Below are positions 1,408 to 33,117 of a stretch of DNA of 33,117 nt, one piece after another. Each line of letters opens with the position of its first letter. Positions within the stretch are counted from its first letter, which is position 1. A program made the position numbers and the translations under genes. The stretch is from Candidatus Peribacter sp. UBA2144 (lineage in GTDB: Bacteria; Patescibacteriota; Gracilibacteria; Peribacterales; Peribacteraceae). The notes under the pieces are model-generated. The model had not been told where the DNA came from, searched no databases, and saw only the letters and a program-made list of their open reading frames with translations. The stretch lies in the NCBI GenBank assembly GCA_002328295.1, contig DCXE01000045.1:3349-36465 (forward strand), read 5' to 3'.

Positions 1408-1444
1408 CAATTGACAATTGACACGCTCCCCCGCTTTCGCGGGG
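1408..1444. repeat. caattgaca word repeat plus GC hairpin (ccccgc-tttc-gcgggg); homologous to the element at 7291-7340
   Basis: caattgacaattgacacgctc at 1408-1428 recurs as caattgacaattaacacgctc at 7299-7319. A 6-bp GC stem lies at 1429-1444. Confidence 0.6.
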
Positions 1445-1479
1445 TCGCTTTTAACAGTTAACAATTATTTTAAAAAGAG

Positions 1480-2241
1480 TTAATTGTTAAAAGGACGTGT
1501 AGCGCCCGTGTTAACTGTCAATTGTTTATTCGTGACACATTCAACTCCCTCATTCTTAATAAATTTCAAAAATGACTCAAGCTGTCCCCACATCTTATAT
1601 TTTTCAACTTCGTGGCTATGTCCCCACAAGTGAAAATAAGGTTGGTCGGTTTTTTTGGCATATGTGAACATTTCTTTGGCAAGACTGAACCAACTTGTGC
1701 ACGACTTGATCGAGATTCCAAGTTTTCTGATATCACCATATAACGCACGCATTGGACCGAAGTGATCAAGTGGATGCCACCACAAAGTCCACTTCTTCCT
1801 CCAAGGAAATGGAGTGATCTGCAAACTTGTTGGCATTGCCAAAGAGTCTGACGAACTAAACTTTATATTCTCCACAGTCCTTGCACCTTCAAACCCTGCA
1901 TTTCTGACCATCTCCTTAACTTCTTTATTAAATAATCCAAACGGATAACAAAACGATTTACATTCCTCGCCTGTAATTCCTTCAATCCATTTCTTGCTCG
2001 ATTCTATTTCCCACTTCGCTTCATCCAAGCTGACTTTTGTAAGTTTAGGATGTGTCATAGAGTGTGCACCAACTTCGTGTCGTGAATTCAAATCTTTAAT
2101 CTGCTGGGCTTTAAGCATATCTTTGTTGTGTTGCTCCTCCGGACAAATATAAAAAGTCCCCTTGCAATCATATTTTTCAAGCAAGCTTGCAACTGCAAGA
2201 TCCAATACATAGCCGTCGTCCCAGGAGGTCGTAAATAACAT
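1480..2241 (-). CDS. polysaccharide deacetylase family protein (NodB / CE4 domain)
   Basis: The SWDDG motif (TFDDG-like) and HSMTHP (H-S/T-x-x-H metal motif) are present at NodB spacing. The ATG at 2241 overlaps the upstream TGA by 1 nt; a TTG at 2244 is an alternative start. Confidence 0.8.
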   Translation of the reverse strand: MLFTTSWDDGYVLDLAVASLLEKYDCKGTFYICPEEQHNKDMLKAQQIKDLNSRHEVGAHSMTHPKLTKVSLDEAKWEIESSKKWIEGITGEECKSFCYPFGLFNKEVKEMVRNAGFEGARTVENIKFSSSDSLAMPTSLQITPFPWRKKWTLWWHPLDHFGPMRALYGDIRKLGISIKSCTSWFSLAKEMFTYAKKTDQPYFHLWGHSHEVEKYKMWGQLESFLKFIKNEGVECVTNKQLTVNTGATRPFNN

Positions 2242-2858
2242 CAAGAAGGAGAGTACTGCAAAAATCCTTCGACCACCATTTCTTTCGCCTCTTCCTCAGT
2301 CACTCCTCTGGAGGTTAAGTAAAACAAATCTTCAGGATCAATTCTTTTTACGCTCGCCGAGTGACTGACTACCACATCATCATTTTTAATTTCCAAACCG
2401 GGAACCAAATCAACTTTCGCCTCCGGATCAAGCATCAAAAACTCCTCATTCAAGAATCCTTTAAATCCTTTACATCCTTTTTCAACTTCTAAAACTCCTT
2501 TGCAATTAATTCGAGAACTACCTTCGGCCACGCCCTTCAAAATAATATCCCCCTTACAATCCTTCTCCTCAAACTTACACTCAACATCAATATCCTGATC
2601 ACAATCAACCGCATGAAACATTCCATTGATCTTTAGCTCTCCCCCCTCTTCGCATTTGCTTCTGAGTTTAAGCTGTCCGCCTTTTGCAAAGATTTTTAAA
2701 TCAATCTTCTCGCCTTTTTTCACAAGTACTTCAATCTTCGCATCGCAGGAATCCAGATTTATAGTCTTCGAAGATACGACCACCAAGTGGACTTTTTCAT
2801 CCGCATTACGAGATGAGCTGATTTCTATGGCCGATTGTTTAATGGTCTTATGAGCCAT
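2241..2858 (-). CDS. sufD: short SufD-like Fe-S cluster assembly protein (SufBD-family C-terminal beta-helix only, 205 aa)
   Basis: The C-terminus DPEDLFYLTSRGVTEEEAKEMVVEGFL parallels the SufB tail AEDLFYLTSRGIAEEEAKAMIVNGFM in the same window. It is about half the length of classical SufD. Confidence 0.7.
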   Translation of the reverse strand: MAHKTIKQSAIEISSSRNADEKVHLVVVSSKTINLDSCDAKIEVLVKKGEKIDLKIFAKGGQLKLRSKCEEGGELKINGMFHAVDCDQDIDVECKFEEKDCKGDIILKGVAEGSSRINCKGVLEVEKGCKGFKGFLNEEFLMLDPEAKVDLVPGLEIKNDDVVVSHSASVKRIDPEDLFYLTSRGVTEEEAKEMVVEGFLQYSPS

Positions 2859-3071
2859 GATTTTGTTGGCATTATATGGTACAATAATCTGATGGGTATT
2901 GAACCATTAAATGTAAGAGTTACTCCCGGCACAGAGGCAGATACAGCCAAATCTGATGCAACGAGAGAGCAAAACTCTGAAACGTTACAGATATCTGTGC
3001 CAGAAGCAATGTTTGCGCCAGTAAATGGTCTTGTTACAGCCATTGCTGATGGAAATAAAGGATTAATTTGA
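2835..3071 (+). CDS. hypothetical small protein (weak call; start uncertain, possibly ATG 2892)
   Basis: Open frame with A/T-rich third positions. It is in the same frame as ORF 3078..3350, separated only by TGA 3069-3071. Confidence 0.25.
   Translation: MFNGLMSHDFVGIIWYNNLMGIEPLNVRVTPGTEADTAKSDATREQNSETLQISVPEAMFAPVNGLVTAIADGNKGLI
2871..2876 (-). promoter_or_regulatory. -10 box TATAAT, 12 nt upstream of the sufD-like ATG
   Basis: The minus strand reads accaTATAATgccaacaaaatcATG. No SD-like purine run is present. Confidence 0.45.
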
Positions 3072-3077
3072 ACAACT

Positions 3078-3350
3078 TTGGAAAGAACCGACGGTCCTAA
3101 ACTATGTGACGCTATCGGATATCTGCCGGAAGATTATCAAGATGCACTAGCAACATATCTAAGGGAGATGTGGGAAGGAGCAGAACTGGGATCCTTGGGT
3201 GAAATTATCAAAAAATTATATGCAATATTGGGATCCGGTGCTGTATTGGCACTAACTGCACTTATTGAAGAAATGAAACTAAAAGAATTTCCTCCAGAAG
3301 TTAAAAAGCGAAGGAGTGGTGGAGATAGAGGTATAGATGAATATATATAA
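3078..3350 (+). CDS. hypothetical protein (TTG start)
   Basis: 90-codon ORF with genome-typical codon bias and no recognisable domain. Confidence 0.35.
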   Translation: MERTDGPKLCDAIGYLPEDYQDALATYLREMWEGAELGSLGEIIKKLYAILGSGAVLALTALIEEMKLKEFPPEVKKRRSGGDRGIDEYI

Positions 3351-3405
3351 ACTTTAGGCTTTTGCCAAAAGCAATTCCAAAGAAAAAGGAGTAGAATGTC
3401 TTGAT

Positions 3406-3774
3406 GTGAGCGAACAACTCAGACTTGACTTTGAGGCGGCAGAAAAGGCTTCGACAAGTTTAGAAACTAGAAGCCAAGATTTTGATGAAAGCGGGAAAAG
3501 AATCTGGCACAAGCAACGCCGGTATAGAAATCAAATAGATTGGATTCTTGAAGTGTACTATCACCGACTAAAGAAATTTGATTACGACCATGAAAAAGCT
3601 AGAGCGAGCATGATAGAAGATGGATATTTAACACGTAATCCTAAACATGATCCAACGGATCCAAATAGTCTTGAATTCACTCCAAACGATGCTAAACAGC
3701 CATGGGCAAAGAAGCTGCGCAAAAAATCACCCAACCGCTCCCTCCATTTCAACTCCTCTACAAACTCCAGGTAA
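3406..3774 (+). CDS. hypothetical basic protein (GTG start)
   Basis: 122-codon ORF. An aaggag lies 13-14 nt upstream of the GTG. It is convergent with sufB, with a 4-nt gap. Confidence 0.45.
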   Translation: MSEQLRLDFEAAEKASTSLETRSQDFDESGKRIWHKQRRYRNQIDWILEVYYHRLKKFDYDHEKARASMIEDGYLTRNPKHDPTDPNSLEFTPNDAKQPWAKKLRKKSPNRSLHFNSSTNSR

Positions 3775-3778
3775 CATT

Positions 3779-5119
3779 TTAGCCCACAGATCCTTCCATC
3801 TCTAATTCGATCAACCTATTCATCTCAACCGCATATTCAAGCGGAAGAAGTCTGACTATGGGATCCATGAAGCCATTTACAATCATTGCTTTTGCCTCCT
3901 CTTCCGCAATTCCCCTCGAAGTTAAGTAGAATAAATCTTCTGCACTGAGCTTTCCGACTCTAGCTTCATGTGCAATTGTCACATCATTATTTCTTAACTT
4001 TATGTCGGGAATTGTATCGGTTCGACTTAGGTCATCCAGAAGCAGGGCATCACATTCCACACTGACTACAGAGTTGCTCGCATTCTCTCCGATTTTAACT
4101 AAGCCACGGTAAGTACATGTGCCCCCTGCTTTTGAAACTGACTTTGACACAATCTTTGATGATGTATGCGGTGCTGAATGTATTACTTTCGCGCCCGTGT
4201 CTTGCCATTGTTCACCTGACGCGAAGGCGACTCCAAAGTGATCGCTTCTCGCCCCTTCGCCTGCCAGAACTGAACACGGATAGAGCATAGTAACTCCCGC
4301 TCCTAAGTTTCCTCCGACCCATTCTATAACTGCATCTTTTTCTACAATCGCCCTCTTCGTATTTAAGTTATATGTATCCTTGCTCCAGTTTTCAACTGAA
4401 CTGTATCTAACCTTCGATCCTTGCTTTGCATAAATCTCAACGCATCCGGCATGAAGACCCTTAGACCCAAATTTTGGCGCTGAGCATCCTTCTATGTAAT
4501 GAACTTCTGCACCTTCATCAACAATAATCAGAGTATGTTCAAACTGTCCCATGTTCGGGGCATTCATTCGAAAGTAAGCTTGCAGTGGCTCTGTTACAAC
4601 TACTCCCTTGGGGACATAAAGGAATGTTCCGCCTGACCAAACGGCACCATGAAGAGCTGCGAATTTATGATCTGAGTTTGGCACGCATTTCATGAAATAT
4701 TCTCTGACCAAAACCGGGTGTTCTTTGACCGCATCATCCATATCCATGAAGATGACTCCTGACTTTTCCCACTCTTCTTTTAAACTGTGATAGATAATGT
4801 CGGATTCATATTGCGCACCAACACCAGCAAGCCACTTGTGTTCCGCTTCCGGTATTCCGAGCTTCTCGTAAACTTCTCTTATGTGATCCGGAAGCTCTCC
4901 CCAATCATCAGTTGCATCAATTCCCGTCGGTGCATAGTAAGTGATATTATCTAAATTTAAACCTGAAAGGTCCGGACCAAATTTTGGAAGGCTGATTGAC
5001 TCGTATTTACTAAGTGAGTCCTCTCTGTGTCCTCGCATCCATTTAGGCTCATTTTTATCTGACGATATCTGATGCAAGAGATCGGAATTTAGGCCTTTTT
5101 GGAGAAGAGTGGATGGCAC
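3779..5119 (-). CDS. sufB: Fe-S cluster assembly protein SufB (GTG start)
   Basis: Full-length SufB-like sequence (YESDIIYHSLKEEWEKSGVIFMDMDDAVKEHP..., TLIIVDEGAEVHYIEGCSAP, LFYLTSRGIAEEEAKAMIVNGF). Confidence 0.93.
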   Translation of the reverse strand: MPSTLLQKGLNSDLLHQISSDKNEPKWMRGHREDSLSKYESISLPKFGPDLSGLNLDNITYYAPTGIDATDDWGELPDHIREVYEKLGIPEAEHKWLAGVGAQYESDIIYHSLKEEWEKSGVIFMDMDDAVKEHPVLVREYFMKCVPNSDHKFAALHGAVWSGGTFLYVPKGVVVTEPLQAYFRMNAPNMGQFEHTLIIVDEGAEVHYIEGCSAPKFGSKGLHAGCVEIYAKQGSKVRYSSVENWSKDTYNLNTKRAIVEKDAVIEWVGGNLGAGVTMLYPCSVLAGEGARSDHFGVAFASGEQWQDTGAKVIHSAPHTSSKIVSKSVSKAGGTCTYRGLVKIGENASNSVVSVECDALLLDDLSRTDTIPDIKLRNNDVTIAHEARVGKLSAEDLFYLTSRGIAEEEAKAMIVNGFMDPIVRLLPLEYAVEMNRLIELEMEGSVG

Positions 5120-5132
5120 GTTGTCTGGACCA

Positions 5133-5164
5133 CAGATTACACAGATTACGCAGATTACGCAGAT
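5133..5164. repeat. tandem word repeat cagattac(a/g) x4
   Basis: cacagattacacagattacgcagattacgcag, immediately upstream of the sufB start. Confidence 0.8.
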
Positions 5165-5185
5165 ATTTTATTAAGAATAACACCC

Positions 5186-5351
5186 GGCAAACGCACTGTT
5201 TGAGATCGAAAGCACCACCTTGCAAGTTCCTTAAAGCAAGAACGAATTGGATGAGGCTCTCCCGCTCAAGGCCTCTAACTCTGAGTGCATCCAATTCGTT
5301 CTGCACACTATAGAAGCTCTAATTGTGCTTTCGAGCGAGTTTGCGTTTGCC
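5186..5351. other. 166-nt rod-like structured element (candidate ncRNA or palindromic MITE)
   Basis: Three perfect nested stems. ggcaaacgca (5186-5195) pairs with tgcgtttgcc (5342-5351). tcgaaagcac (5206-5215) pairs with gtgctttcga (5325-5334). agaacgaattggatg (5239-5253) pairs with catccaattcgttct (5288-5302). These are separated by ~22-nt internal loops that each form a small hairpin (cttgc..gcaag; gcaca..tgtgc). Confidence 0.5.
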
Positions 5352-5406
5352 TTGATCTTTTCTTTGCTTCTTTCTTTTGCATCAAGGTAAAAGAAAGAAG
5401 AAAGAC
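5351..5406. repeat. word-type hairpin (ttctttc / gaaagaa arms)
   Basis: cttttctttgcttctttctttt (5357-5378) faces aaaagaaagaagaaagac (5389-5406). Confidence 0.7.
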
Positions 5407-5474
5407 ATTGATAATTAAGCCAAAAAGCTCATAATTGAGGCTCTTGAACCTAAATTGCCGAAATGTACGTTTTA

Positions 5475-5483
5475 TGCTATAAT
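5475..5483 (+). promoter_or_regulatory. extended -10 TGcTATAAT, 11 nt upstream of ATG 5495
   Basis: tatgctataattacactaaataATG; no SD. Confidence 0.5.
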
Positions 5484-5494
5484 TACACTAAATA

Positions 5495-7291
5495 ATGAAC
5501 TCAGAAAATGTATCTTCAGAGGCTCCCAAAGCTCATATCTTGAAGCGATTGGCCAATCGAGTATGGATGATATTAAGATATAAAGTTCTCCCCTTCTGCA
5601 AAAGGAGATGGAAGCTTTTGACTGTTTTAACAGTAATAATCGTGCCATTCCTTCTTCTGCTCATATGGATCTTTGCACCGGAGAGTCCAGAAGTCGTTAT
5701 GGCAACCGCGGAAAGGAGTGATTTGGTACAGACTGTTGAAGCTGTTGGAACCGTAATTTCGGAAAAGGACTTAAAACTCAGATTTCCACTAACAGGCGTC
5801 GTTGGAAAGGTGCTAATTGAAGAAGGCGACAGTGTTGAGGAAAACCAGGAGCTTGCTCATCTAAGGAACGGAGCTCTGAAGGCAGATGTGACTGCAGCAC
5901 AAGCAAGTCTTTCATCTCAATCAGCTCAACTTAAGGAGCTAAAAGAAGGAACTCGTCCGGAAGATATTCTTATTCAGGAAGCAGAGGTTGAAAACAAGAA
6001 GGCGGCTCTTGAGTCCGCGTACGCAACCTTTAATGGAGCCAAAGAGAAGCTGGAAAAATTGAACATGGAAGCCAAGATAAGCTTGTCTGGGTATGTTTCA
6101 ACAGCAAGCAGTGAAACGTCTGAGCAGCTGACAGAAATCAGATCAGCCTTAAGAAAGATAGAAGATGTCTTAGAGGATTCAGCATTAAACCGTGCTGCCA
6201 CATATAACGAGCCTACTGATTTTGAAATGCTGACAAGAAAAAAGGCAAATGCAATACACCAGATAGAACAAATGATTAAATTACTTCCTTCAAATTTCAA
6301 AGACTACAAAGAAGCAATAAGCAAACTGAGGGAAGTGCGAGATACGACCGCGGAAGCGTCCCAAACTATTTCAAAAATGTATTCATTCGTTGCAAATATG
6401 AAGCTGTATCACAACTATGATTTCAGCGACCGAGAAACTCATAAAACAACATTAACTACGCAAAGTAATACAGTTCAAGATGCGTTATCCTCTCTCGATT
6501 CTACTCTCAAGACAATGCGCGATGCATCAGCCGATTACGACACGCAGATTGCAAGTGCCCAGAGCACAATAGAAACTTCCCAGGCAGATATTCAAACCTA
6601 CGAAGCATCTCTAAGGAAGCAGGAAGCCGAGCTTGCAAAGAAGAGGGCAGGAGCCAGGCCTACAGAAATTCAAGCTCAGCAAGCAAGAGTGAATCAAGCA
6701 TATGCCGAATTGAATCGTGCAAAGGCAAAGCTTGAAGACACTATTATCAGAGCCCCAATTGCTGGGGCAATAACAAAAGTTAATCTGAAAGAGGGCGAAT
6801 TTACAGGCGGACTGGATTTGAATGAGTTTGCCCTGAGTATGTTAGGCGCTTCTCCTTACAGAGTTGAAATGTTTGTTGCAGAGATTGACATACCGAAAGT
6901 TAAATTGAGCCAAAGCGGGTCAATTGATTTGGATGCGTTCCCGAACGAAGAGTTTGTAATGAAGGTAAGTGAAATCGATCCGACCGCGACTGACAAAGAT
7001 GGAGTATCCAAATACCGCGTTAAGCTGGACTTCCCTGAGCAAGATATGAGATTGAAGATAGGAATGACCGGAGATGCGGAAATTTATACTGACTTCAGGA
7101 AAGACGTTGTGCACATACCAGGCAGGGCCGTCTTTACGGACGAAAAGGGAGATGAAATTGTGAAGATATTAAAAGACAATAAAGTAATCGAAAGGAAGAT
7201 AAAAACCGGAATGGAAGGAGAAGGCGGTGACGTGGAAGTAATTGAAGGTATCAATGAGGGTGAGACGATAATTCTATTAATTAAGGATTAA
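5495..7291 (+). CDS. HlyD-family periplasmic adaptor / membrane fusion protein (MacA-like) with a long coiled-coil
   Basis: N-terminal TM (LLTVLTVIIVPFLLLLIWIF), a lipoyl-like hairpin halves motif (RFPLTGVVGKVLIEEGDSV ... IRAPIAGAITKVNLKEGEF), and a very long heptad-rich middle region. Confidence 0.85.
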   Translation: MNSENVSSEAPKAHILKRLANRVWMILRYKVLPFCKRRWKLLTVLTVIIVPFLLLLIWIFAPESPEVVMATAERSDLVQTVEAVGTVISEKDLKLRFPLTGVVGKVLIEEGDSVEENQELAHLRNGALKADVTAAQASLSSQSAQLKELKEGTRPEDILIQEAEVENKKAALESAYATFNGAKEKLEKLNMEAKISLSGYVSTASSETSEQLTEIRSALRKIEDVLEDSALNRAATYNEPTDFEMLTRKKANAIHQIEQMIKLLPSNFKDYKEAISKLREVRDTTAEASQTISKMYSFVANMKLYHNYDFSDRETHKTTLTTQSNTVQDALSSLDSTLKTMRDASADYDTQIASAQSTIETSQADIQTYEASLRKQEAELAKKRAGARPTEIQAQQARVNQAYAELNRAKAKLEDTIIRAPIAGAITKVNLKEGEFTGGLDLNEFALSMLGASPYRVEMFVAEIDIPKVKLSQSGSIDLDAFPNEEFVMKVSEIDPTATDKDGVSKYRVKLDFPEQDMRLKIGMTGDAEIYTDFRKDVVHIPGRAVFTDEKGDEIVKILKDNKVIERKIKTGMEGEGGDVEVIEGINEGETIILLIKD

Positions 7292-7411
7292 CAATTAACA
7301 ATTGACAATTAACACGCTCGCTACGCTCGCTCTTAACAACCAATATACAATCTTACGTCTTACGTCCTAAATCCTACGTCCTAATCAACTGCGCTACTGA
7401 GTTACTGCGCT
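7291..7411. repeat. composite word-repeat spacer (caattgaca words; tacgtcc words; actgcgcta words)
   Basis: caattaacaattgacaattaacacgctcgctacgctcgctcttaac; tcttacgtcttacgtcctaaatcctacgtcctaat (7351-7385); actgcgctactgagttactgcgctg (7388-7412). Confidence 0.75.
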
Positions 7412-7418
7412 GAATAAC

Positions 7419-8183
7419 ATGACCGCCACCAATAACGACTTCAACGGCAACGGAAAATCTCCCCTGATAGAAACTAGTAAATTATGTAAATCATATTTCA
7501 ACGATGAACTGGAAACGAAAGTGCTTTTTGATATCGATCTGACAATTAATAAAAACGAGTTTGTGGGAATCATGGGACCATCGGGTTCCGGAAAATCAAC
7601 ACTGATGCACATACTCGGATTTTTGGATCATCACACTGGCGGAGAATATCTCTTCCACGGCAAGCATGCACAAGAGATGGATGAAGATACACTCGCAAAA
7701 GTCCGCGCAACAAGAGTGAGTTTCGTCTTCCAGGCTTTTAACCTGTTGCCGCGCGCATCAGTCCTGCAAAATGTAATGTTGCCTTTAATTTATCACCCAA
7801 CTATCCCCGCATCCGAACGCCTGGAAAGAACAAAAAAGGCAATTGAGGCTGTAGATCTAACCGATCACTCTGATTATTTGAGCAATCAATTATCCGGAGG
7901 TCAAAAACAGAGAGTGGCAATAGCAAGAGCTCTCGTAACCGAGCCGGAGGTTATATTTGCAGATGAACCGACAGGAAACTTGGACTCAGCATCTGGAATA
8001 CATGTGATGCAAGCGCTTCAGGAACTGCATTCAAACGGACACACGATCATTCTTGTAACTCATGAACAAGCAACAGCTGAGCATGCAGATAGAATTATTG
8101 AATTGTTTGACGGAAGAATTACAAAAGACACGAGTAAGTTTAAAACCAGGAAGGCAAAGAAGGAAGATTCCCTTAAGAAATAA
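7419..8183 (+). CDS. ABC transporter ATP-binding protein (MacB/LolD-type)
   Basis: Walker A GPSGSGKST, signature LSGGQKQRVAIARAL, Walker B IFADEPTGNLD. Confidence 0.93.
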   Translation: MTATNNDFNGNGKSPLIETSKLCKSYFNDELETKVLFDIDLTINKNEFVGIMGPSGSGKSTLMHILGFLDHHTGGEYLFHGKHAQEMDEDTLAKVRATRVSFVFQAFNLLPRASVLQNVMLPLIYHPTIPASERLERTKKAIEAVDLTDHSDYLSNQLSGGQKQRVAIARALVTEPEVIFADEPTGNLDSASGIHVMQALQELHSNGHTIILVTHEQATAEHADRIIELFDGRITKDTSKFKTRKAKKEDSLKK

Positions 8184-8195
8184 TGATTACAACCA

Positions 8196-8266
8196 GTCAC
8201 TCGTCGCTAGTCACTAGTCACTGGTCACGCCAGCTGACGAGCGACGAGAGACAAGTGACTAGCGAC
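8196..8266. repeat. word-type inverted repeat (gtcact / agtgac words)
   Basis: gtcactcgtcgctagtcactagtcactggtcac faces gctgacgagcgacgagagacaagtgactagcgac. Confidence 0.7.
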
Positions 8267-8285
8267 ATTCCACTTCACCAATAAC

Positions 8286-9521
8286 ATGCTAATTCGCGAT
8301 TTATTTTCGACAGCGAGTAAGGCCGTCACTGTTAATCGGATGAGATCACTCCTGACTATGTTGGGGATCATAATTGGAGTCGGAGCAGTCGTTTTGATGA
8401 CCGGGGTTGGGAAAAGTATTGAGGGAGTAATCCTCGGACAAATTGACTTCATGGGACCCAAAACCATGGCGATATTTCCCGGAAATGATGGGCCTGAAGG
8501 CGGAAGCACCACTATGCGTCCGGACTTCGATGCACTTACATTCTCTGATGCAGAGGCGCTGGAGTCTCTCACTACTGTAAGTAGCGTTGCCCCCGCTGTT
8601 ATTGTCCCAGGAAATGCCCGATATGGCAGAGAGGAAGCAGACCCTAGGATTATCGGGGCTTCTCCAAATTACTATTTGAATCAGAATATAGAAACTGCAG
8701 AGGGAAGATTTCATGATCAAAGAGACGAGGAGTCCTCTAACTATGTTGTAGTAATTGGATCGGAGATTGCGGATGATTTGTTCTTTGGAAGAAATGCAGT
8801 CGGCAAAAGAATCGAAATTGCCAACAGAAAGTTTACGGTTATAGGAGTTTTGAAACCGATTGGAATGGTCTTCTTCCAAAATATCGACGACAGAATCATC
8901 ATTCCCCTTTCAACTGCAATAAACATGACTGGAAGAAAGCACGCAGATATGTTTTCTCTCCAATCAACTAACGGATTTGAAATAGCATTCGAAGACGTCA
9001 GGGCCTTGCTCAGACAGCGCCATGGGATCACTCCTCCGGAAGATGGATCAACTGATAATGACGACTTTCTTGTTAGATCTGCAGCTCAGGCAGAGCAAGT
9101 TCTGGGCACGGTTTCGATAAGCCTGACTGTATTTATCACGATGATTGCAGGAATTTCGCTCTTCGTTGGGGGAATTGGGATTATGAATATAATGCTTGTA
9201 TCTGTTACTGAGCGTACAAGAGAAATTGGGCTAAGGAAGGCAGTCGGAGCAAAAAGAAGAGATATACTGCTTCAGATACTTATCGAGTCTGTATTTCTGA
9301 CTTTGATTGGAGGCCTTATCGGAATCGCGATTGGAATAGGAATAGATTTTCTTCTGGCAAAAACCGTTGAAAAGTTTTTAGGTGAGTATCAGTTTGCAAT
9401 AAGTGTAGGAGCAATATTCTTAGCCCTTGCAATGGCAACTGTTACAGGAATTGCTTTTGGAATCTATCCTGCAAGGAAGGCATCTAAATTACATCCAATT
9501 GAAGCGTTGCGTTATGAGTAA
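8286..9521 (+). CDS. ABC transporter permease, MacB/FtsX family (periplasmic core domain + FtsX 4-TM)
   Basis: N-terminal TM, large extracytoplasmic domain, and a C-terminal GGIGIMNIMLVSVTERTREIGLRKAVGAKRRDIL motif typical of MacB/LolC/E-type permeases. Confidence 0.9.
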   Translation: MLIRDLFSTASKAVTVNRMRSLLTMLGIIIGVGAVVLMTGVGKSIEGVILGQIDFMGPKTMAIFPGNDGPEGGSTTMRPDFDALTFSDAEALESLTTVSSVAPAVIVPGNARYGREEADPRIIGASPNYYLNQNIETAEGRFHDQRDEESSNYVVVIGSEIADDLFFGRNAVGKRIEIANRKFTVIGVLKPIGMVFFQNIDDRIIIPLSTAINMTGRKHADMFSLQSTNGFEIAFEDVRALLRQRHGITPPEDGSTDNDDFLVRSAAQAEQVLGTVSISLTVFITMIAGISLFVGGIGIMNIMLVSVTERTREIGLRKAVGAKRRDILLQILIESVFLTLIGGLIGIAIGIGIDFLLAKTVEKFLGEYQFAISVGAIFLALAMATVTGIAFGIYPARKASKLHPIEALRYE

Positions 9522-9538
9522 AACAAGTTCCCACCAGC

Positions 9539-9648
9539 CACAGGTCACACGTCGCAAGTCGCAAGACCTGTCACAAGTCACAAGTCATATATCCTGTGAC
9601 TTGCGACCTGCGACTAATCCTGTGACCTGTGACTTTATACCTGTGACC
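9539..9648. repeat. word-type inverted repeat (gtcgcaa / gtcacaa vs ctgtgac / ctgcgac words)
   Basis: gtcgcaagtcgcaagacctgtcacaagtcacaagtca faces cctgtgacttgcgacctgcgac...cctgtgacctgtgac. Confidence 0.75.
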
Positions 9649-9677
9649 CCCAACAGTCCTACAACTAATAATAAATA

Positions 9678-10898
9678 ATGCTACTGTCTGACACAATTTC
9701 GGCTGCAATGGAGGGACTCCACCGTTCCCGCCTCAGATCGATGTTAACAACGCTCGGAATCGTAATCGGAGTTGGCTCTGTTGTTCTAATGGTTTCTGTT
9801 GGAGCAAGTTTTGAACGTTATATCCTGGATCAGGTTGAAAGTTTTTCGGGAGATACGTTTGAAATTCATGCAAAGGGAGTTCAGGACATTGGAAAGGATG
9901 TATTAAGCATTACATTTGGAGACCTTGAAGCTATAAAAGATCTAACTACTGTGCAAAATGTAGCACCCGCAATCTTTTTGACTGACCGGATCAGTTATGG
10001 ACGCGAAGAGATAGCACCATTTATTTTTGGAACGACCAAAGAAATATTTATTAACTGGTCGCTGAAGATTGATCAGGGAAGATTGCTCACGGACGGAGAT
10101 GATAAGGGCGCCAAAAGTGTGACCGTCCTTGGTTCACAAGCTGCTGAAGATTTATTCCCTAACGAGAATCCTTTGGGCAAAAAAATAACTGTCGGCTCAC
10201 GTAAATTTACAGTTGTCGGAGTTATAGAAGCCATGGGCTCGCCGTTAGCTGAACAAATGGACTCAATTGTCTATGTGCCGTTCTCTGTAGCCAAGGCGAT
10301 ACAGGGGCGTAGTACTTATATTGACTACATAGCTCTGCAATCGAAGGGCGGTGATAATGAACTGACGAGAAGGGACATCGTCGCTCTGCTTAGGCAGAGA
10401 CACAACATAGATAATCCCGAAGATGACGGAGATAAGGATGATTTTTACGCGCGTTCTTTTGAGCAGGCAATGGAGATCATCAATACCGTGACGATGAGTA
10501 TTACGCTATTTCTAGGGCTCATCGCAGGCATCTCCCTTTTGGTTGGAGGAGTAGGAATCATGAACATCATGCTTGTGTCTGTTACCGAACGTACGAAAGA
10601 GATAGGACTAAGAAAAGCAGTTGGCGCACGCAGAATAGATATACTTCTTCAGTTCCTTTTGGAAGCGATTGTTCTTACTTTGATTGGAGGAGTAATCGGA
10701 GTTATTGGAGCCATCGGTTTGGGACTTCTTATGACAGCAGTTGCAAACAAGCTTTTGGGAGGCATCACTTATGCAATTACACTGACTTCAATTCTACTTC
10801 CTTTGATTACTGCAATAGTTGTAGGACTTATTTTTGGAATTTATCCGGCAAGGAAAGCAGCCAAACTTAGTCCAATTGAAGCAATGGGGTATGAATAA
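9678..10898 (+). CDS. second ABC transporter permease, MacB/FtsX family (paralog of 8286..9521)
   Basis: Same architecture and motif (GGVGIMNIMLVSVTERTKEIGLRKAVGARRIDIL). Confidence 0.9.
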   Translation: MLLSDTISAAMEGLHRSRLRSMLTTLGIVIGVGSVVLMVSVGASFERYILDQVESFSGDTFEIHAKGVQDIGKDVLSITFGDLEAIKDLTTVQNVAPAIFLTDRISYGREEIAPFIFGTTKEIFINWSLKIDQGRLLTDGDDKGAKSVTVLGSQAAEDLFPNENPLGKKITVGSRKFTVVGVIEAMGSPLAEQMDSIVYVPFSVAKAIQGRSTYIDYIALQSKGGDNELTRRDIVALLRQRHNIDNPEDDGDKDDFYARSFEQAMEIINTVTMSITLFLGLIAGISLLVGGVGIMNIMLVSVTERTKEIGLRKAVGARRIDILLQFLLEAIVLTLIGGVIGVIGAIGLGLLMTAVANKLLGGITYAITLTSILLPLITAIVVGLIFGIYPARKAAKLSPIEAMGYE

Positions 10899-10971
10899 AG
10901 ATATCGGCTTGCATTCATAACATCACTCAGGTAACAATAACTATGTATTCTATTATTTTCCCCTTTTGTAT

Positions 10972-11142: not shown

Positions 11143-11161
11143 GCTATTTACGAAAAATAGT

Positions 11162-24022: not shown

Positions 24023-24033
24023 ATAAGAAACAC

Positions 24034-26767: not shown

Positions 26768-26784
26768 AGGATTGGGGGGTAGAT

Positions 26785-26805
26785 CTTAGAACTTAGAACT
26801 TAGGG
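26785..26805. repeat. tandem word repeat cttagaa x3
   Basis: cttagaacttagaacttaggg. Confidence 0.7.
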
Positions 26806-26854
26806 ATTTGATCATACATCGACTGATCTCTCTTCTGCAATTGCCAAACTTTAT

Positions 26855-26880
26855 CTACTGCACTACTGCGCTATTGCGCC
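26855..26880. repeat. tandem word repeat ctactgcg(c) family (also at 7388-7412)
   Basis: ctactgcactactgcgctattgcgcc. Confidence 0.65.
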
Positions 26881-26895: not shown

Positions 26896-27609
26896 ATGAT
26901 CCCATCTGAACATGAATCAAAGCTCAGGCGATTAAACCAAATCTTCCTCGAAGAGAACCAGAAACTTAATCTATCCGCTTTCCGTGAGGAGGAACAAAGC
27001 TGGGTTGGAAATATAGAGGACTCATTATCAATATTAGACTCCCCTCTCCTTTTAGGAGAGGGTAAGCCTGTCCTGAGCGAAGCCGAAGGAGGGGTGAGGT
27101 CGTTAAAAATTCTCGACCTCGGCACAGGCGGAGGCTTCCCTCTCCTGCCCTTAGCCATATGCCAACCTGAATCTAAACTGACCGGACTTGATTCAACCAA
27201 TAAAAAAATCTCTGCAGTTGAACGAATTACAAAAGAACTTAGTCTGACCAATGTCGATCTGATATCCGGAAGAGCGGAAGAATTGGGACGTGATCCGGAG
27301 CATCGTGAGCAATATGACCTAATACTCTCGAGAGCAGTCGCGGGAACAAATACTCTTCTTGAACTCTGCGCACCGTTTGCAAAAGTCAAAGGAAAAATAG
27401 TTTTCTGGAAAAGTATGAAGATAGATAAAGAACTAGAAGACTCACTGATGGCAAGGGCAGAACTTACATGCCATCTGATAGATCAATATGAATATGAATT
27501 GCCGGAACCTTTCGGCAAACGCCAGCTTCTGGTTTTCGAAAAAACTTCTCCAACTCCAGATAAATATCCTCGCAAAATCGGCGAACCTAAAAAGAAACCC
27601 ATCACCTAA
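26896..27609 (+). CDS. rsmG: 16S rRNA (guanine527-N7)-methyltransferase RsmG (GidB), carrying a ~21-codon in-frame insertion
   Basis: DSL...ILDLGTGGGFPLLPLAI SAM motif, SGRAEELG, YDLILSRAVA. Confidence 0.88.
   Translation: MIPSEHESKLRRLNQIFLEENQKLNLSAFREEEQSWVGNIEDSLSILDSPLLLGEGKPVLSEAEGGVRSLKILDLGTGGGFPLLPLAICQPESKLTGLDSTNKKISAVERITKELSLTNVDLISGRAEELGRDPEHREQYDLILSRAVAGTNTLLELCAPFAKVKGKIVFWKSMKIDKELEDSLMARAELTCHLIDQYEYELPEPFGKRQLLVFEKTSPTPDKYPRKIGEPKKKPIT
27040..27102. repeat. REP/MITE-like palindromic element inside the rsmG reading frame
   Basis: tcccctctccttttaggagagggtaagcctgtcctgagcgaagccgaaggaggggtgaggtcg. It has a perfect 8-bp hairpin, ccctctcc/ggagaggg. The tcctgagcgaagccgaagga core resembles the 14117 and 33007 elements. 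Confidence 0.65.
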
Positions 27610-27638
27610 CCCTAGCCCTAGCCCTCACCCTAACCCTA
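27605..27638. repeat. tandem word repeat ccctag/ccctaa
   Basis: cctaaccctagccctagccctcaccctaaccctaa, overlapping the rsmG stop. Confidence 0.75.
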
Positions 27639-27642
27639 ATAA

Positions 27643-28221
27643 ATGCCTAAGAGATATACTCCAAATGATGAGCTGAGTCAGAAAGCTAAAGCCGAAGGCT
27701 ACCGCGCAAGATCAGTTTATAAACTCAAAGAGCTTGATGAGAAGTTCAATCTGATTAAACCCGGTATGACTGTTCTTGACCTTGGAGCCGCTCCGGGCAG
27801 TTGGTTGCAATACGCAAAAGAAAAAGTTGGACCTAAGGGCAAAGTTATCGGAGTTGATTTACAAGAAATTGAACCGATAGAAGGAATCGAAACAATCAAA
27901 GCAGATATAACCGAACCTACCTTACTTACCTTACCTACCATACCTAAATCTATTGACCTAATATTATCCGATCTTGCCCCCTCAACCAGTGGAGTAAAAG
28001 ACGTAGATCAGTGGAGATCAATAGAATTAAATCAGGCAGTTGAAAAAATTGCTGAGCAAGCCTTAAAGCCAGGAGGCGTCTGCGTAATGAAAGTGTTCAG
28101 AGGAGCTGACTTTGATGATTTCCTCAGAAGCCTTAAAACCAAGTGGGAAACAGTCAAAACAGCTCAGGTAAAGGCTTCGCGGGATAGGAGTCGGGAGATT
28201 TATATTCTGATAGCAAATTGA
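27643..28221 (+). CDS. rlmE: 23S rRNA (uridine2552-2'-O)-methyltransferase RlmE (FtsJ)
   Basis: RSVYKLKELDEKF, VLDLGAAPGSWLQY, ILSDLAPSTSG, VMKVFRG, ASRDRSREIYIL. Confidence 0.9.
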   Translation: MPKRYTPNDELSQKAKAEGYRARSVYKLKELDEKFNLIKPGMTVLDLGAAPGSWLQYAKEKVGPKGKVIGVDLQEIEPIEGIETIKADITEPTLLTLPTIPKSIDLILSDLAPSTSGVKDVDQWRSIELNQAVEKIAEQALKPGGVCVMKVFRGADFDDFLRSLKTKWETVKTAQVKASRDRSREIYILIAN

Positions 28222-28246
28222 CAATTGACAATGAACAATGGACAAT
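28218..28246 (+). promoter_or_regulatory. promoter-like TTGACA-N17-GACAAT, 8 nt upstream of ATG 28255
   Basis: TTGACA at 28218-28223, a 17-nt spacer, GACAAT at 28241-28246, then tacctgctATG. Confidence 0.5.
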
Positions 28247-28250
28247 TACC
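28218..28250. repeat. caattgaca word array, left inverted arm flanking the four-helix-bundle gene
   Basis: ttgacaattgacaatgaacaatggacaattacc is the reverse complement (imperfect) of 28641-28675. Confidence 0.8.
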
Positions 28251-28254
28251 TGCT

Positions 28255-28629
28255 ATGAAAAAAACAAACCCATTGCAGGTAAAGAGCTTTAAATTTGCAT
28301 TAAATATAATCGAAATTTATAAACAACTCATCAAAGAAAAGGAATTTGTCATGAGTAAGCAATTACTAAGATCAGGTACAAGTATTGGCGCAAATATTGA
28401 AGAAGCTCTACAAGCCCAATCAAAGAAAGATTTTATTCACAAGTTATCAATTGCACTCAAAGAAGCACAAGAAACTGGTTATTGGATCAAGCTGCTCAAA
28501 GAGAGTTCAATTTTGGATAAAGAGAAGGCAACAGATTTATTTATTCAAGCTAAGGAATTAATGAAAATGCTCACAGCTATTATAAAGACGTCTAAAAGCA
28601 ATATCCTTAAACAATCTATCGAACATTAA
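28255..28629 (+). CDS. four-helix-bundle protein (23S rRNA intervening-sequence protein family, TIGR02436-like)
   Basis: FKFALNIIEIYKQL...LLRSGTSIGANIEEA...KDFIHKLSIALKEAQETGYWIKLL is the family signature as I recall it. The start is set at ATG 28255 because the upstream codons are translated repeat. Confidence 0.8.
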   Translation: MKKTNPLQVKSFKFALNIIEIYKQLIKEKEFVMSKQLLRSGTSIGANIEEALQAQSKKDFIHKLSIALKEAQETGYWIKLLKESSILDKEKATDLFIQAKELMKMLTAIIKTSKSNILKQSIEH

Positions 28630-28640
28630 ATTCGAGTCTC

Positions 28641-28675
28641 CAATTGTCAATTGTCAATTGTCCATTGTCAATTCA
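28641..28675. repeat. caattgtca word array, right inverted arm
   Basis: caattgtcaattgtcaattgtccattgtcaattca. Confidence 0.8.
28644..28672 (+). promoter_or_regulatory. promoter-like TTGTCA-N17-GTCAAT, 7 nt upstream of ATG 28680
   Basis: TTGTCA at 28644-28649, a 17-nt spacer, GTCAAT at 28667-28672, then tcagactATG. Confidence 0.45.
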
Positions 28676-29456: not shown

Positions 29457-29603
29457 TATTTGTAATTTTCAATTTAAAATTTGCAATTTTCATTCAATTT
29501 TCAATTATTAATGTTTAATTTCTAAATAGTATGGATTTGGAAATTGTAAATTGGATCTTGAATGATAATTCAAAATTGAAAATTAAAAATTTATTCGTTC
29601 TCT
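29457..29603. repeat. AT-rich word-type inverted repeat (aattttcaatt / aattgaaaatt words)
   Basis: gtaattttcaatttaaaatttgcaattttcattcaattttcaatt faces aattcaaaattgaaaattaaaaattt. Confidence 0.7.
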
Positions 29604-30076: not shown

Positions 30077-30168
30077 AGTTAAAAGTGAATAGTGAATAGT
30101 TAATAGTGGCTGAAATGATTGGTTCTCTTTAGTAACTTTTCACTATTCACTATTAACTATTCACTTTT
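30077..30168. repeat. word-type inverted repeat (agtgaat / attcact words), same family as 20947-21041
   Basis: agttaaaagtgaatagtgaatagttaatagtg faces cactattcactattaactattcactttt. Confidence 0.85.
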
Positions 30169-30196
30169 TTACAAGACATCTTTGGCAATATCCAGC

Positions 30197-30202
30197 TACA
30201 AT
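30197..30202 (+). promoter_or_regulatory. -10 box TACAAT, 6 nt upstream of ATG 30209
   Basis: ccagctacaatacacccATG. Confidence 0.45.
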
Positions 30203-30208
30203 ACACCC

Positions 30209-31311: not shown

Positions 31312-32148
31312 GTGCCAGAGTTTCTTCCCGATCCGGAAGTTCAAAAACAAAACAAGATAAACCGTCGTCGATTTATAAAGGCAGCAACTGCAGTTGTAAT
31401 ATACGATTTGTTGCAAAGCGAATATCAGGAGCCTGTGCCTATGCCAAGAATTACATTGCCTGAATTTAAGGAAATAGTTCGCTATGAACTTCCAGGGGTT
31501 AATGTAACCGAAGAGGTAGCACCGCCGAATGTAACAGGAGATGGAATTGGAGAATGGAGCATACCCGAAACAACTTTGTCGGTTATCAGAAGATTATTCC
31601 AGGAAAAACCGCAAGATGTTGTAGCAGATTCAACTGAATGGGTATCCGGATTTCAGGAGCCATTACAGCAAGAAGATGTTAAACCTGCATACGAACCTGT
31701 ATATGAACCTGCATACGAATCTGCATACGAACCTGCGGAGCCGAGCCAAAAATATACTTGCTCCAAAAAAACGCGCAATTCTTGCGATGGACTTAATCCA
31801 AAAGGATACCCAATGTATGTATTAAATACCTTGCCGGAAGATGCTTCCATGCGTGGGTTTATAGATTGGCACCAAAGGGCTGCTCTTAAATTGGACGACC
31901 AATTATACTTCGTCGTTGATGGAAGCCAGGGAACCATATGGAATGGGACACTTGGGTCCTATGTACTCACCAAGAATGAGGGAAGAATGAGGCGCACCCC
32001 ATTCGCATCTATAGCCAGATTCAAGCAAGCCAAATGGGACATTGGCCCCTCTCGCATAGCCCAAGTACTCATGAACGCAGTATCCGAAGAAGAGATGCAA
32101 TCTATGGATGTAAGGCAAAATGAGATAGGTTATCATAATTACGCTTAA
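31312..32148 (+). CDS. hypothetical protein with a Tat-like N-terminal motif and PAYE tandem repeats (GTG start)
   Basis: NRRRFIKAATAVVIY resembles the twin-arginine consensus. The C-terminal ~130 aa have no recognisable domain. Confidence 0.55.
   Translation: MPEFLPDPEVQKQNKINRRRFIKAATAVVIYDLLQSEYQEPVPMPRITLPEFKEIVRYELPGVNVTEEVAPPNVTGDGIGEWSIPETTLSVIRRLFQEKPQDVVADSTEWVSGFQEPLQQEDVKPAYEPVYEPAYESAYEPAEPSQKYTCSKKTRNSCDGLNPKGYPMYVLNTLPEDASMRGFIDWHQRAALKLDDQLYFVVDGSQGTIWNGTLGSYVLTKNEGRMRRTPFASIARFKQAKWDIGPSRIAQVLMNAVSEEEMQSMDVRQNEIGYHNYA
31684..31743 (+). repeat. coding 12-nt tandem repeat (cctgcatacgaa x ~4.5) giving PAYE-PVYE-PAYE-SAYE-PAEP
   Basis: Units lie at 31684, 31696, 31708 and 31720, with a partial unit at 31732. 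Confidence 0.85.
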
Positions 32149-32221
32149 TTCTTGACACCAACTAAATCAATACTGGAATCCAGTATTCTTCTTAAACCCT
32201 CCTTCGTAAAAGTAAGCAAGA

Positions 32222-32230
32222 TGCTATACT
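32222..32230 (+). promoter_or_regulatory. extended -10 TGcTATACT, 8 nt upstream of ATG 32239
   Basis: gatgctatactaacaccccATG. Confidence 0.5.
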
Positions 32231-32238
32231 AACACCCC

Positions 32239-32988
32239 ATGCGCACTCCCGAAGAACTTGCCATAGCCTACAAAGAGCATCAAGAAGCTGATGTGCATGG
32301 ACTTTGGATAGGATCATATATCCAAGACATTGTTTACGGAGGTAATGATGGAATCGTTACAACTTTTGCAGTAGTTGCAGGAACAATGGGAGCAGACCTT
32401 CCGCATTACATAATAATCATTCTGGGACTTGCTAACCTCTTGGCTGACGGAACTTCTATGGGAACTGGCGCATACCTTTCCAAGAGATCCGAACGTGATA
32501 ATTACGAGAGGCTGAGAAAAGAGGAGCTTGAAGAAATTGAAATTGATCCGGAAATTGAAGCGGAGGAAGTTCGGCAAATGTATAGAAAGAAAGGTTTTGA
32601 AGGAAAAGATCTTGAGCGTGCAGTTGAAATAATTACGGCTGACAAAGATCGTTGGGCAGAAGTTATGCTTCATGAAGAACATCACATGACAAAAGAAGCA
32701 TCCGAGAAACCCGTCGTTCACGGATTGCTGACATTTATATCATTCGCAATCTTCGGGGCCATTCCTCTAATCCCCTATTTTATTATCACAAGTGCAGACT
32801 CGCGCTTTCCGGTCGCTATTGTTTCCACTTTCTTTGCATTGGTGCTTTTGGGAGTTGCTAAGAGCAAAATAATGCGTGAGAAGATTTTCCGCGGTCCACT
32901 CGAGATTGTAAGCGTTGGGGCCCTTGGAGCATTTGTGGCTTATGGAGTGGGAGTATTTCTCAAGAGCTTGGTGGGAGTCGCTATGTAG
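32239..32988 (+). CDS. VIT1/CCC1-family iron/manganese transporter
   Basis: [19 protein letters not shown] motif, a central acidic cytosolic helix bundle ([16 protein letters not shown]), and C-terminal TM helices. Confidence 0.88.
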
Positions 32989-33002
32989 AGGAAACAGATA
33001 AA

Positions 33003-33078
33003 TACTGTCATCCTGAGCTCTGTCGAAGGATGACAGTGTACGTTGTGTCATGGTTCGACAGAGCTCACCATGACACAT
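33003..33078. repeat. REP/MITE-like double hairpin, second copy of the 14115-14178 element
   Basis: ctgtcatcc-tgagctctgtcgaa-ggatgacag (33005-33036) and tgtgtcatggt-tcgacagagctc-accatgacaca (33044-33077). Each core differs by 1 nt from the 14.1 kb copy. Confidence 0.85.
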
Positions 33079-33117
33079 AAATCCTCTGAATCTTCTGCTT
33101 CCTCTGCCTCCTCTGCT
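33079..33117. repeat. word repeat cctctg / cttctg family (same family as 24085-24121), truncated by the window end
   Basis: aatcctctgaatcttctgcttcctctgcctcctctgct. Confidence 0.7.

Follow-up and report, generated by a model that had tools for sequence, protein, structure and literature searches.

Tandem heptanucleotide arrays and their inverted pairing in the intergenic spacers of a marine Peribacteria genome

The intergenic spacers of a 33,117-nucleotide stretch of the genome of Candidatus Peribacter sp. UBA2144 (contig DCXE01000045.1; this whole stretch is called the window below) carry short tandem arrays of word-like units, which often face their own reverse complement. They raise the question of whether this is a new class of repeat, how it might have arisen and what it might do at gene boundaries. 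The host is a marine bacterium of the Peribacteria, within the candidate phyla radiation (CPR), with a genome GC content of 42%. The heptamer arrays are genuine and statistically overwhelming. They are not a new repeat class, since intergenic tandem heptanucleotide repeats have already been described; new here are the lineage, the many spacer-specific words and hairpin pairing as the commonest form. A very small compact genome with such arrays over about a quarter of the spacer DNA in one region, and four genomes in which the structure is kept and the sequence replaced, provide a tractable system to separate mutational origin from function.

Heptamer arrays and hairpins in the spacers

Tandem Repeats Finder returned 59 rows for the window, nearly all of them in spacers, with 26 of period 7 and 11 of period 9. 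Under a stringent definition, period-7 arrays cover 549 of the 4127 non-coding nucleotides against 6.9 +/- 9.3 in dinucleotide shuffles, and 42 of the 28990 coding nucleotides against 20.7 expected. The non-coding coverage of period-9 arrays is 58 nt against 0.8 expected, and periods 8 and 10 have zero coverage at the same threshold. The unit is overwhelmingly 7 nt long, with a minority of 9 nt, one case of 8 and one of 6, which narrows the range of 7-10 nt given in the initial annotation. A few arms reach into the last codons of open reading frames (ORFs); as that annotation had it, the right arm at 21014-21046 provides the last codons and the stop (21030-21032) of a SufC-like gene.

An array of period 6-9 is present in 19 of the 29 spacers of at least 20 nt (66%), and arrays account for 929 of 3979 nt of spacer DNA (23%). 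They are much sparser in a further ~31 kb of sequence of the same organism, so that the near-universal occupancy of spacers originally described was an overstatement. All of the words listed at that stage were recovered, at or within ~10-30 nt of their reported positions, and the repeats are indeed intergenic, often inverted and grouped in small dispersed families, with word families recurring at 2-4 loci within the ~64 kb of the genome examined.

Strict criteria yielded 17 long inverted repeats, 16 of which lie in the non-coding 12% of the window. In 11 spacers a word array faces its own reverse complement, and this inverted-arm hairpin is the commonest single arrangement of arrays in the window. 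About 40% of the arrays have no inverted partner, and five loci consist of solo arrays only (Table 1); the earlier view that most arrays occur as facing arms is imprecise in this respect. Folding z-scores lie between -3 and -9 for the 11 word hairpins, and with them for most hairpin spacers. This holds in every orientation class, be it convergent, co-directional or divergent, and the hairpins of divergent spacers, where read-through transcripts are not expected, are as strong as the others.

Each array mixes 2-4 variants of a single word, and the differences between these variants are restricted to fixed positions, e.g. A-G-T-[G/T]-A-A-[A/T] or A-A-T-T-G-A-[T/G]. The mismatches between arms coincide with these variable positions and are not of the G.U type. 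Among copies of one family, a single arm is near-perfectly common, whereas the partner arms and loops differ. Thus, the arms 21014-21041 and 30141-30168 are identical at 28 of 28 positions, in agreement with the earlier observation; 22455-22485 and the right arm of the hairpin at 22863-22961 (from 22931) are identical at 30 of 31; and 30-32 nt of an AATTGAK left arm are common to the purE-UDG and sufC-fer2 hairpins. The repeats also mislead ORF callers into N-terminal extensions and wrong start codons. Alignments of orthologs of UDG (ATG 21865), PurM (ATG 30209) and FtsE (ATG 28680) begin at shorter forms, which indicates that the array-spanning long ORF starts of these genes are probably artificial, as had been proposed. 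The idea that the arrays serve as three-frame stop arrays was dropped, since several of the words (GTCGCAA, CAGAGGAAA) introduce no stop in any of the six frames.

Word turnover and positional persistence in related genomes

Among named relatives, L007, a metagenome-assembled genome (MAG) labelled 'uncultured Candidatus Peribacteria', is the closest, with a PheS 92% identical to that of the window; the next two are 'Patescibacteria group' MAGs (PheS 72% and 70% identical). A cyanobacterial host, which the heptamers and the GC content had first suggested, was rejected on gene content, on the Peribacteria and Patescibacteria labels of the relatives and on the single copy of HIP1. We compared orthologous spacers in four genomes, namely the window, L007, L008 and L009. 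Period 7 is likewise dominant in the three relatives, and in orthologous spacers the hairpin is kept while the word is replaced. For example, the word in the UDG/hyp120 spacer is GTGGAAA in the window, GTGTGTA/GTGAGTA in L007, GTGAAAA in L008 and CGTATTT in L009. In the spacer upstream of UDG, the loop ttcgcaagcgaaaac is common to L008 and L009 but lies between unrelated arms, which indicates that the arms evolved in situ. Between the window and L007, arms and loop are conserved in two spacers, a different family occupies another three, three more differ by gain or loss, and families are reshuffled among neighbouring spacers. The hyp150/PurM spacer measures 152 nt in the window and 40 nt in L007, and the RsmG/FtsJ spacer 33 and 10 nt. 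The PRTase/RsmG spacer has full hairpins in L008 and L009, as against solo arrays in the window. The comparison of sister genomes that the initial annotation had suggested as a guide to how the words evolve gives conserved positions with replaced words.

Three species retain a CAATTGT array immediately ahead of the FtsE start; the inverted partner of the window copy is found 393 nt farther upstream, and the 'loop' between them encloses the IVP-family gene, which is missing from L007 and L009. This layout (28216-28673) resembles that of rRNA intervening sequences, in which such ORFs are carried inside an RNase III stem. The 23S-rRNA-IVP-family (four-helix-bundle) gene adjoins the 23S methyltransferase gene rlmE/ftsJ. 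Similar arrays are also present in the more distant Patescibacteria loci L016 and L019 and in L013, including an intergenic CAATTTT/TTGAAAA hairpin that abuts an ATG.

Within the population, at least 13 independent assemblies from several marine samples and different assemblers have arrays that are base-for-base identical in the shared regions; in the same alignments, coding DNA differs by ~0.1-0.4% and the arrays show zero differences. Set against at least 13 other assemblies, the window itself is composite, which the initial annotation did not record: it changes genomic context twice, each time inside a repeat. The first join (14114-14150) lies in a 37-nt stretch of a ~65-nt double-hairpin element, and the second (21779-21808) in the 30-nt left arm common to two AATTGAK hairpins. 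Positions 1827-14209 match six assemblies in which other paralogues follow the ATPase, 14114-21857 match assemblies with a different upstream paralogue, and the sequence from 21768 onward matches six assemblies with PurE, not SufC, before UDG; in seven assemblies SufC continues into Fer2-TPR-HolB-SecA. The second join cuts sufC off from the start codon and upstream region seen elsewhere and takes the place of the PurE gene found ahead of UDG in other assemblies. The two joins reflect either misassembly or rare recombination; in both cases the length and similarity of the repeats suffice to connect unrelated loci, and identical repeats of 30-37 nt are long enough to yield composite contigs in MAGs of the CPR.

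Known repeat classes, proposed origin and possible function

Among the long simple sequence repeats (SSRs) of bacteria, tandem heptamers, known since 1990, belong to the most common. The short tandemly repeated repetitive (STRR) sequences described by Mazel in 1990 are said to have the consensus units CCCCAGT, TTGGTCA and CAACAGT and heterocystous cyanobacterial hosts, and small hairpin repeats are reportedly often embedded in cyanobacterial heptamer arrays, as noted by Elhai et al. in 2008; the GC-rich mini-hairpins in loops of the present arrays match this pattern. Like the cyanobacterial STRR of Calothrix and Nostoc/Anabaena, the window arrays are intergenic 7-nt tandems of 2-8 copies, often near promoters or starts, with several words per genome. 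Two words of Nostoc 7120, TTTTGAA and GACYAAT, are similar to AATTTTC/TTGAAAA and GACAATT of the window (bioRxiv 10.1101/2022.06.06.494920; PMC4692102). However, STRR have few genome-wide consensus units, whereas the words of the window are largely spacer-specific with the inverted-arm form commonest, the host belongs to the CPR (Peribacteria) and HIP1 occurs only once. The window arrays thus share with heptanucleotide SSRs the head-to-tail 7-nt unit and the confinement to non-coding DNA, and fall outside STRR in the sense of Mazel for want of a consensus unit in tandem and a cyanobacterial host. None of the published heptamer words (including CCCCAGT, TTGGTCA, CAACAGT and TAACTGA) is found in tandem in the window.

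According to the accounts of Mrazek et al. 2007 given in PMC4692102 and PMC4679880, heptanucleotide repeats outnumber all other classes of long SSRs in many genomes, and slippage has been put forward as their cause. As represented there, they resemble the window arrays in an intergenic-specific excess of period 7, in differences of copy number and sequence at the same spacer between close relatives and in occasional inverted stem-loops or cruciforms. The Xanthomonas GGGAATC and Nostoc GGGGAYT repeats are G-rich heptamers with occasional inverted pairs and fast change between close relatives (PMC4692102). These genomes have one G-rich word each, with G-quadruplex potential, whereas the window has many mostly AT-rich words, no such potential and frequent hairpins. 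The TAACTGA repeats of marine Beggiatoaceae, cyanobacteria and Bacteroidetes also stand just upstream of start codons, in 2-6 direct copies that in some cases overlap the end of the upstream ORF, and have a similarly scattered phylogeny; unlike the window repeats they consist of a single word, inverted in just 1 of 170 sets (PMC4679880). With the heptamers near promoters and start codons of Nostoc 7120 (bioRxiv 10.1101/2022.06.06.494920), these precedents form a described class, where the initial annotation knew of none that matched the arrays. Our literature search found no paper tying heptamer or tandem repeats to CPR/Patescibacteria.

Repetitive extragenic palindromic (REP) sequences, bacterial interspersed mosaic elements (BIMEs) and REPINs, which are REP pairs that form hairpins, share with the window intergenic imperfect palindromes of 60-130 nt with two inverted arms, placed between co-transcribed and convergent genes, and have been proposed to act in termination, mRNA stability and DNA topology (PMC3116915, PMC3733652). 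REP units are a fixed 20-40 nt with a GTAG/CGTC head, in hundreds of near-identical copies linked to REP-associated tyrosine transposases (RAYTs) (PMC3116915, PMC3733652); in contrast, the window arms are tandem short-word arrays in many small families with no head motif. At the gathering score Rfam recognized only the 16S gene in the window, and a relaxed scan gave nothing but generic sub-threshold look-alikes of microRNA precursors on the hairpins. The repeats match no Rfam family and, in line with the initial annotation, no REP/BIME-type family.

Upstream of most genes there is a TATAAT-, TATACT- or TACAAT-like box, the end of which lies 6-11 nt ahead of the ATG (e.g. 5476-5494, 11808-11826, 15931-15949, 19622-19640, 22972-22990, 30191-30208 and 32219-32238), and Shine-Dalgarno motifs are almost absent upstream of window genes. 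The 16S 3' tail (window 1230-1250) reads CACTTCCTT, against the canonical anti-Shine-Dalgarno CACCTCCTT. Together these features of the sequence suggest that leaderless, largely monocistronic mRNAs may be widespread in this host. The arrays typically end at the -10-like boxes (RsmG, the gene after VIT1, hyp120, IVP and SufB) or come straight after a stop codon. Intrinsic terminators show no enrichment in the window (14 and 19 sites against 15 +/- 3.5 in shuffles) and include no word hairpin; partial fits are limited to the GC stem at 1429-1444 within a loop and the T5 run after the 24088-24104 arm. The features singled out earlier, namely the T-run at 24121-24125 and the TTGACA/GACAAT hexamers at 28218-28246, are present. 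A terminator-like role for the hairpins at large finds no support, given the lack of terminator enrichment and their equal strength in divergent spacers.

Our preferred explanation, on which our judgement is evenly poised, is that the arrays are STRR-like intergenic SSRs, about half of them arranged as quasi-palindromes, which probably arose through slippage, template switching and gene conversion and are probably retained as gene-boundary hairpins. Judging by their anatomy, replication slippage in a 7-nt register would grow and shrink the arrays, intramolecular template switching of the quasi-palindrome-correcting kind would hold the arms complementary, and short-patch ectopic gene conversion would move single arms between spacers, giving rise to small dispersed families and quick replacement of words between species. 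In Escherichia coli, quasi-palindrome template-switch mutagenesis corrects one arm of an imperfect palindrome against the other. Such a process would keep the arms complementary while the word drifts, but it has been described for single mutations in short quasi-palindromes and not for tandem heptamer arrays. In a setting where most genes might be leaderless from a -10 box just before the ATG and classical terminators are few, the hairpins would be tolerated as gene-boundary elements and probably retained in that capacity. At the level of RNA, they might act as 3'-end, termination or processing hairpins after co-directional and convergent genes, and at the DNA level as spacers or insulators directly upstream of -10 boxes.

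Several observations weigh against this explanation. About a third of the window spacers and most spacers elsewhere in the genome are without arrays, which implies that they are not an obligatory boundary element. Most stems are AU-rich and have no U-tract, and a hairpin in a divergent spacer cannot be a terminator. There is no sense-strand (G.U) bias, the sense stem in co-directional spacers being more stable in four cases and less stable in seven. This, with the equal strength in divergent spacers, indicates a DNA-level origin; selection on the stems at the RNA level found no support in the 4 to 7 comparison. No variation in unit copy number was seen among the 13 assemblies, and slippage, template switching and gene conversion are processes that we infer from the pattern.

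A more far-reaching proposal, which we regard as doubtful, is that quasi-palindromic heptamer arrays might be the standard gene-boundary device of the Peribacteria clade (and sparser in other Patescibacteria). They would stand in for classical terminators or serve as processing sites of the RNase III type, and would also buffer the promoters directly before the ATG; arm pairing would be selected while the word drifts, and AATTGAN would double as a self-assembling sigma-70 promoter.

It is also possible, if on the doubtful side, that the repeats are a neutral by-product, with slippage-prone replication or repair filling unconstrained spacers with functionless heptamer arrays and palindromes. 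The many unrelated words, the unpaired arrays, the patchy density across the genome, the lack of strand bias in the stems and the rapid gain, loss and replacement relative to L007 despite 92% identity in PheS would all be expected of such a process. The generality of the arrays points the same way. When public metagenome contigs were scanned for AGTKAAW in 3.5 or more units, at least 120 stretches came up, on contigs with GC of 0.21-0.68; among the 80 loci examined, 15 show an inverted partner no more than 150 nt away, and just two are rich in HIP1. On viral contigs, in what is only a rough comparison, the word gave at least 119 stretches against 80 and 84 for two permuted-word controls. AGTKAAW as a special word is therefore unsupported, and heptamer arrays of many AT-rich words, sometimes paired, appear to be widespread. 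A purely neutral origin is less easily reconciled with hairpins that persist at orthologous spacers of four genomes despite full word turnover, with the CAATTGT array preserved before FtsE in three species, with the invariance of the arrays among at least 13 assemblies, or with a compact genome that has many spacers of less than 60 nt and yet keeps elements of 60-130 nt.

Regulation at the DNA level, through promoter, UP-element or protein-binding arrays, strikes us as an unlikely account of the repeats. On this view AATTGAN tandems might present a sigma-70-like promoter at every 7-nt register: arrays of AATTGAC, AATTGAT and ATTGTAA generate TTGAnA-17-GAnAAT, which matches 10 of 12 positions of TTGACA-17-TATAAT (probability 0.013 for a composition-matched random heptamer), and 4 of ~9 heptamer families score at least 9/12 against ~0.9 expected. 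The promoter scan of the window selects these arrays, the 28218-28246 arm ends 8 nt before the IVP ATG in the geometry of leaderless genes, many solo arrays abut -10 boxes, and TTGAAAA/TTGATAA arms abut an ATG in the distant Patescibacteria locus L016. Elsewhere, Nostoc heptamers modulate promoter use (bioRxiv 10.1101/2022.06.06.494920), and a periodic DNA- or RNA-binding protein would have a parallel in CspB, to which, as cited in PMC4679880, one heptamer is bound per protein. But half of the families (GTCACTA, GTCGCAA, TACGTCC, CAGAGGAAA, CCCTAA and others) bear no resemblance to promoters, and the promoter-like families are possibly one related superfamily, in which case the statistic is not independent. 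Furthermore, the scan found no overall enrichment of sigma-70 promoters in the window, and in most hairpins the arms would fire at each other or antisense into the flanking genes.

Still less probable are miniature mobile elements, akin to REPINs or to miniature inverted-repeat transposable elements (MITEs), that would insert in spacers by means of a transposase encoded elsewhere. Identical arms at distant loci, presence or absence between close relatives (as in the hyp150/PurM and RsmG/FtsJ spacers) and the shuffling of families between neighbouring spacers of the window and L007 are what mobility would produce. Against this, the arms are tandem arrays of variable length rather than fixed termini, copies of a family have wholly different loops and only one arm in common, and the loop common to L008 and L009 between different arms speaks for evolution in place. 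No hairpin has target-site duplications (at best, direct repeats of 0-2 nt flank 10 of the 11 hairpins and one of 4 nt flanks the remaining one), the arm ends carry no GTAG/CGTC heads and are word-specific (aacaat, gtcgct, aattga and others), and a Pfam scan of 30 window proteins found no transposase or RAYT.

Finally, an assembly or scaffolding artefact, which the switches of context inside repeats at 14114-14150 and 21779-21808 might bring to mind, is hardly credible for arrays that are identical in at least 13 independent assemblies from different assemblers and samples and also present at orthologous spacers of three other species-level genomes, and that are thus not confined to the window.

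Catalogue of the arrays and neighbouring features

Table 1. Positions, settings and composition of the repeat arrays and hairpins of the window
Position	Setting	Element	Details
1406-1526	3' of 16S gene	Nested hairpin	Fold z = -8.6, both strands; outer arms AATTGAC x2.4, 1406-1425 and 1507-1526, 18/20 pairs; inner arms TTAACAG/TTAACAA, 1448-1469 and 1472-1493; GC-rich stem with T-run 1429-1444 in loop; right arm within 3' end of deacetylase ORF
5131-5164	Upstream of SufB	Solo 9-mer array CAGATTACR x3.8	Begins 12 nt upstream of SufB start (minus strand); unpaired
7279-7410	HlyD to ABC ATPase	String of solo arrays	No hairpin, z = +1.2; AATTRAC x5 (7279-7314, overlaps HlyD stop); CGCTCGCTA x2 (7314-7331); CTTACGTC-type (7351-7385); ACTGCGCTA-type (7388-7410)
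8195-8266	ABC ATPase to FtsX1	GTCACTA/GTCGCTA hairpin	Arms 8203-8226 and 8243-8266, 88% complementary; z -5.2 and -4.7
9539-9648	FtsX1 to FtsX2	GTCACAA/GTCGCAA hairpin	Arms 9544-9566 and 9592-9614; z -6.5 and -7.6; CCTGTGA units at 9619-9648
14116-14179		~65-nt double-hairpin element (separate repeat class)	TGTCATCCTGAGCyCTGTCGAAGGATGACA ... TGTCATGGTTCGACAkAGCTCACCATGACA; second copy 33006-33075; partial copy 19571-19583; also in L020, L030
20944-21046	SIMPL to SufC	AGTKAAW hairpin	Arms 20944-20972 and 21014-21042, 25/29 pairs; right arm gives sufC its final codons and stop
21777-21858	Upstream of UDG	AATTGAK hairpin	Left arm 21779-21808, identical to left arm of second hairpin in sufC-fer2 spacer of other assemblies; context-switch point
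22423-22485	Convergent UDG/hyp120	AATTGAA/GTGGAAA near-perfect palindrome	27/31 pairs, 1-nt loop; z -6.1 and -5.0
22863-22961	Divergent hyp120/PheS	AATTGAA/GTGGAAA-family hairpin	48-nt loop; arms and loop kept in L007
24032-24125	Convergent PheS/dockerin gene	9-mer CAGARGAAA hairpin	Arms 24033-24049 and 24088-24104, 16/17 pairs; T-run 24121-24125; separate GC-rich stem then at ~24138-24165
26780-26879	Divergent PRTase/RsmG	Two solo arrays	CTTAGAA x3.4 (26780-26803) beside PRTase start; CTACTGCG x3 (26855-26879) abuts -10-like box of RsmG
27605-27639	RsmG-FtsJ, filling the spacer	Solo hexamer array CCCTAR x5.8	Missing in L007 (10-nt spacer); second copy of family in L021, 11712-11739
28216-28673	Flanking 23S-IVP-family gene 28255-28629	AATTGAC-type arms	28216-28247 forward, 28641-28673 reverse complement; left arm has TTGACA-17-GACAAT ending 8 nt before IVP ATG
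29458-29591	Convergent FtsE/hyp150	AATTTTC/AATTTGC hairpin	28/34 pairs, 60-nt loop; GCAGATT-type hairpin instead in L007
30077-30168	Divergent hyp150/PurM	AGTKAAW hairpin	26/28 pairs, 32-nt loop; missing in L007 (40-nt spacer)
33079-33117	Runs past window end	Solo 9-mer array, CCTCTGMTT type	Complement orientation of 24032 family; in L001 abuts TTATAAT, then 6 nt, then next gene's ATG

According to the Rfam scan, positions 1-1250 of the window are the 3' four-fifths of the bacterial 16S rRNA gene. The remainder encodes ~30 proteins, including SufB, SufC and a SufD-like protein, an exporter composed of HlyD, an ABC ATPase and two FtsX, an ATPase resembling type IV secretion system coupling proteins, three ~560-aa paralogues, UDG, PheS, RsmG, RlmE/FtsJ, the 23S-IVP-family protein, FtsE, PurM and VIT1. 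Dozens of marine metagenome contigs and two MAGs, Tara Oceans assemblies among them, encode identical copies of its PheS, PCC, ATPase and deacetylase. The 16S gene is solitary: it is followed by no tRNA or 23S gene within the window and has protein genes on both flanks in at least six assemblies (also L034, 6763-8878). It is bordered by heptamer arrays on either side, and on inspection by eye its flanks are not convincingly complementary as a processing stem.

The ~65-nt element consists of two adjacent hairpins, TGTCATCC...GGATGACA and TGTCATGG...CCATGACA, with mutually complementary loops, and its copies lie upstream of the 560-aa paralogues and after VIT1. Series of 2-3 successive short GC-rich hairpins (e.g. 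gcggaaatt...aatttccgc, agctgggacggcgccgtcccagct and gcgacgcatcgcgtcgc) occupy spacers and the loops of heptamer hairpins at L007 17051-17176 and L021 7189-7244, and call to mind the small dispersed repeats within cyanobacterial heptamer arrays. The region 14207-19569 (also L020, L023 and L028-L031) encodes tandem paralogues of ~527-587 aa with a weak C-terminal match to a treble-clef zinc finger, and their copy number and order vary among assemblies. The dockerin-domain protein gene at 24223-25863 has a GC content of 55%, against 42% for the genome. Its product has only 467 aa in one MAG, and the distance between the gene and PheS is ~3.4 kb greater in L007 than in the window. The gene may have been acquired horizontally or may evolve fast.

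At 2241-3077, a SufBD-core ORF of 205 aa holds just the C-terminal portion of the domain; 219 nt without an ORF follow, beside a full-length SufB gene, and the ORF could represent a split or degenerate sufD. At 21681-21775 (minus strand; L020 10100-10187), sufC lacks an ATG, GTG or TTG close to its conserved N-terminus FLSIKGLKV, for which the E. coli counterpart is MLSIKDLHV. Gene calls in other assemblies start at a TTG within the hairpin, adding ~25 residues translated from the repeat, so that either a repeat-encoded N-terminal extension is real or a non-canonical start is used. In the PRTase/RsmG spacer (26769-26841), L004 and L006 differ from the window at 14 sites in 73 nt and then enter a different gene. 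Their spacer resembles that of L007, and this is a strain-level recombination boundary within a repeat-bearing spacer.

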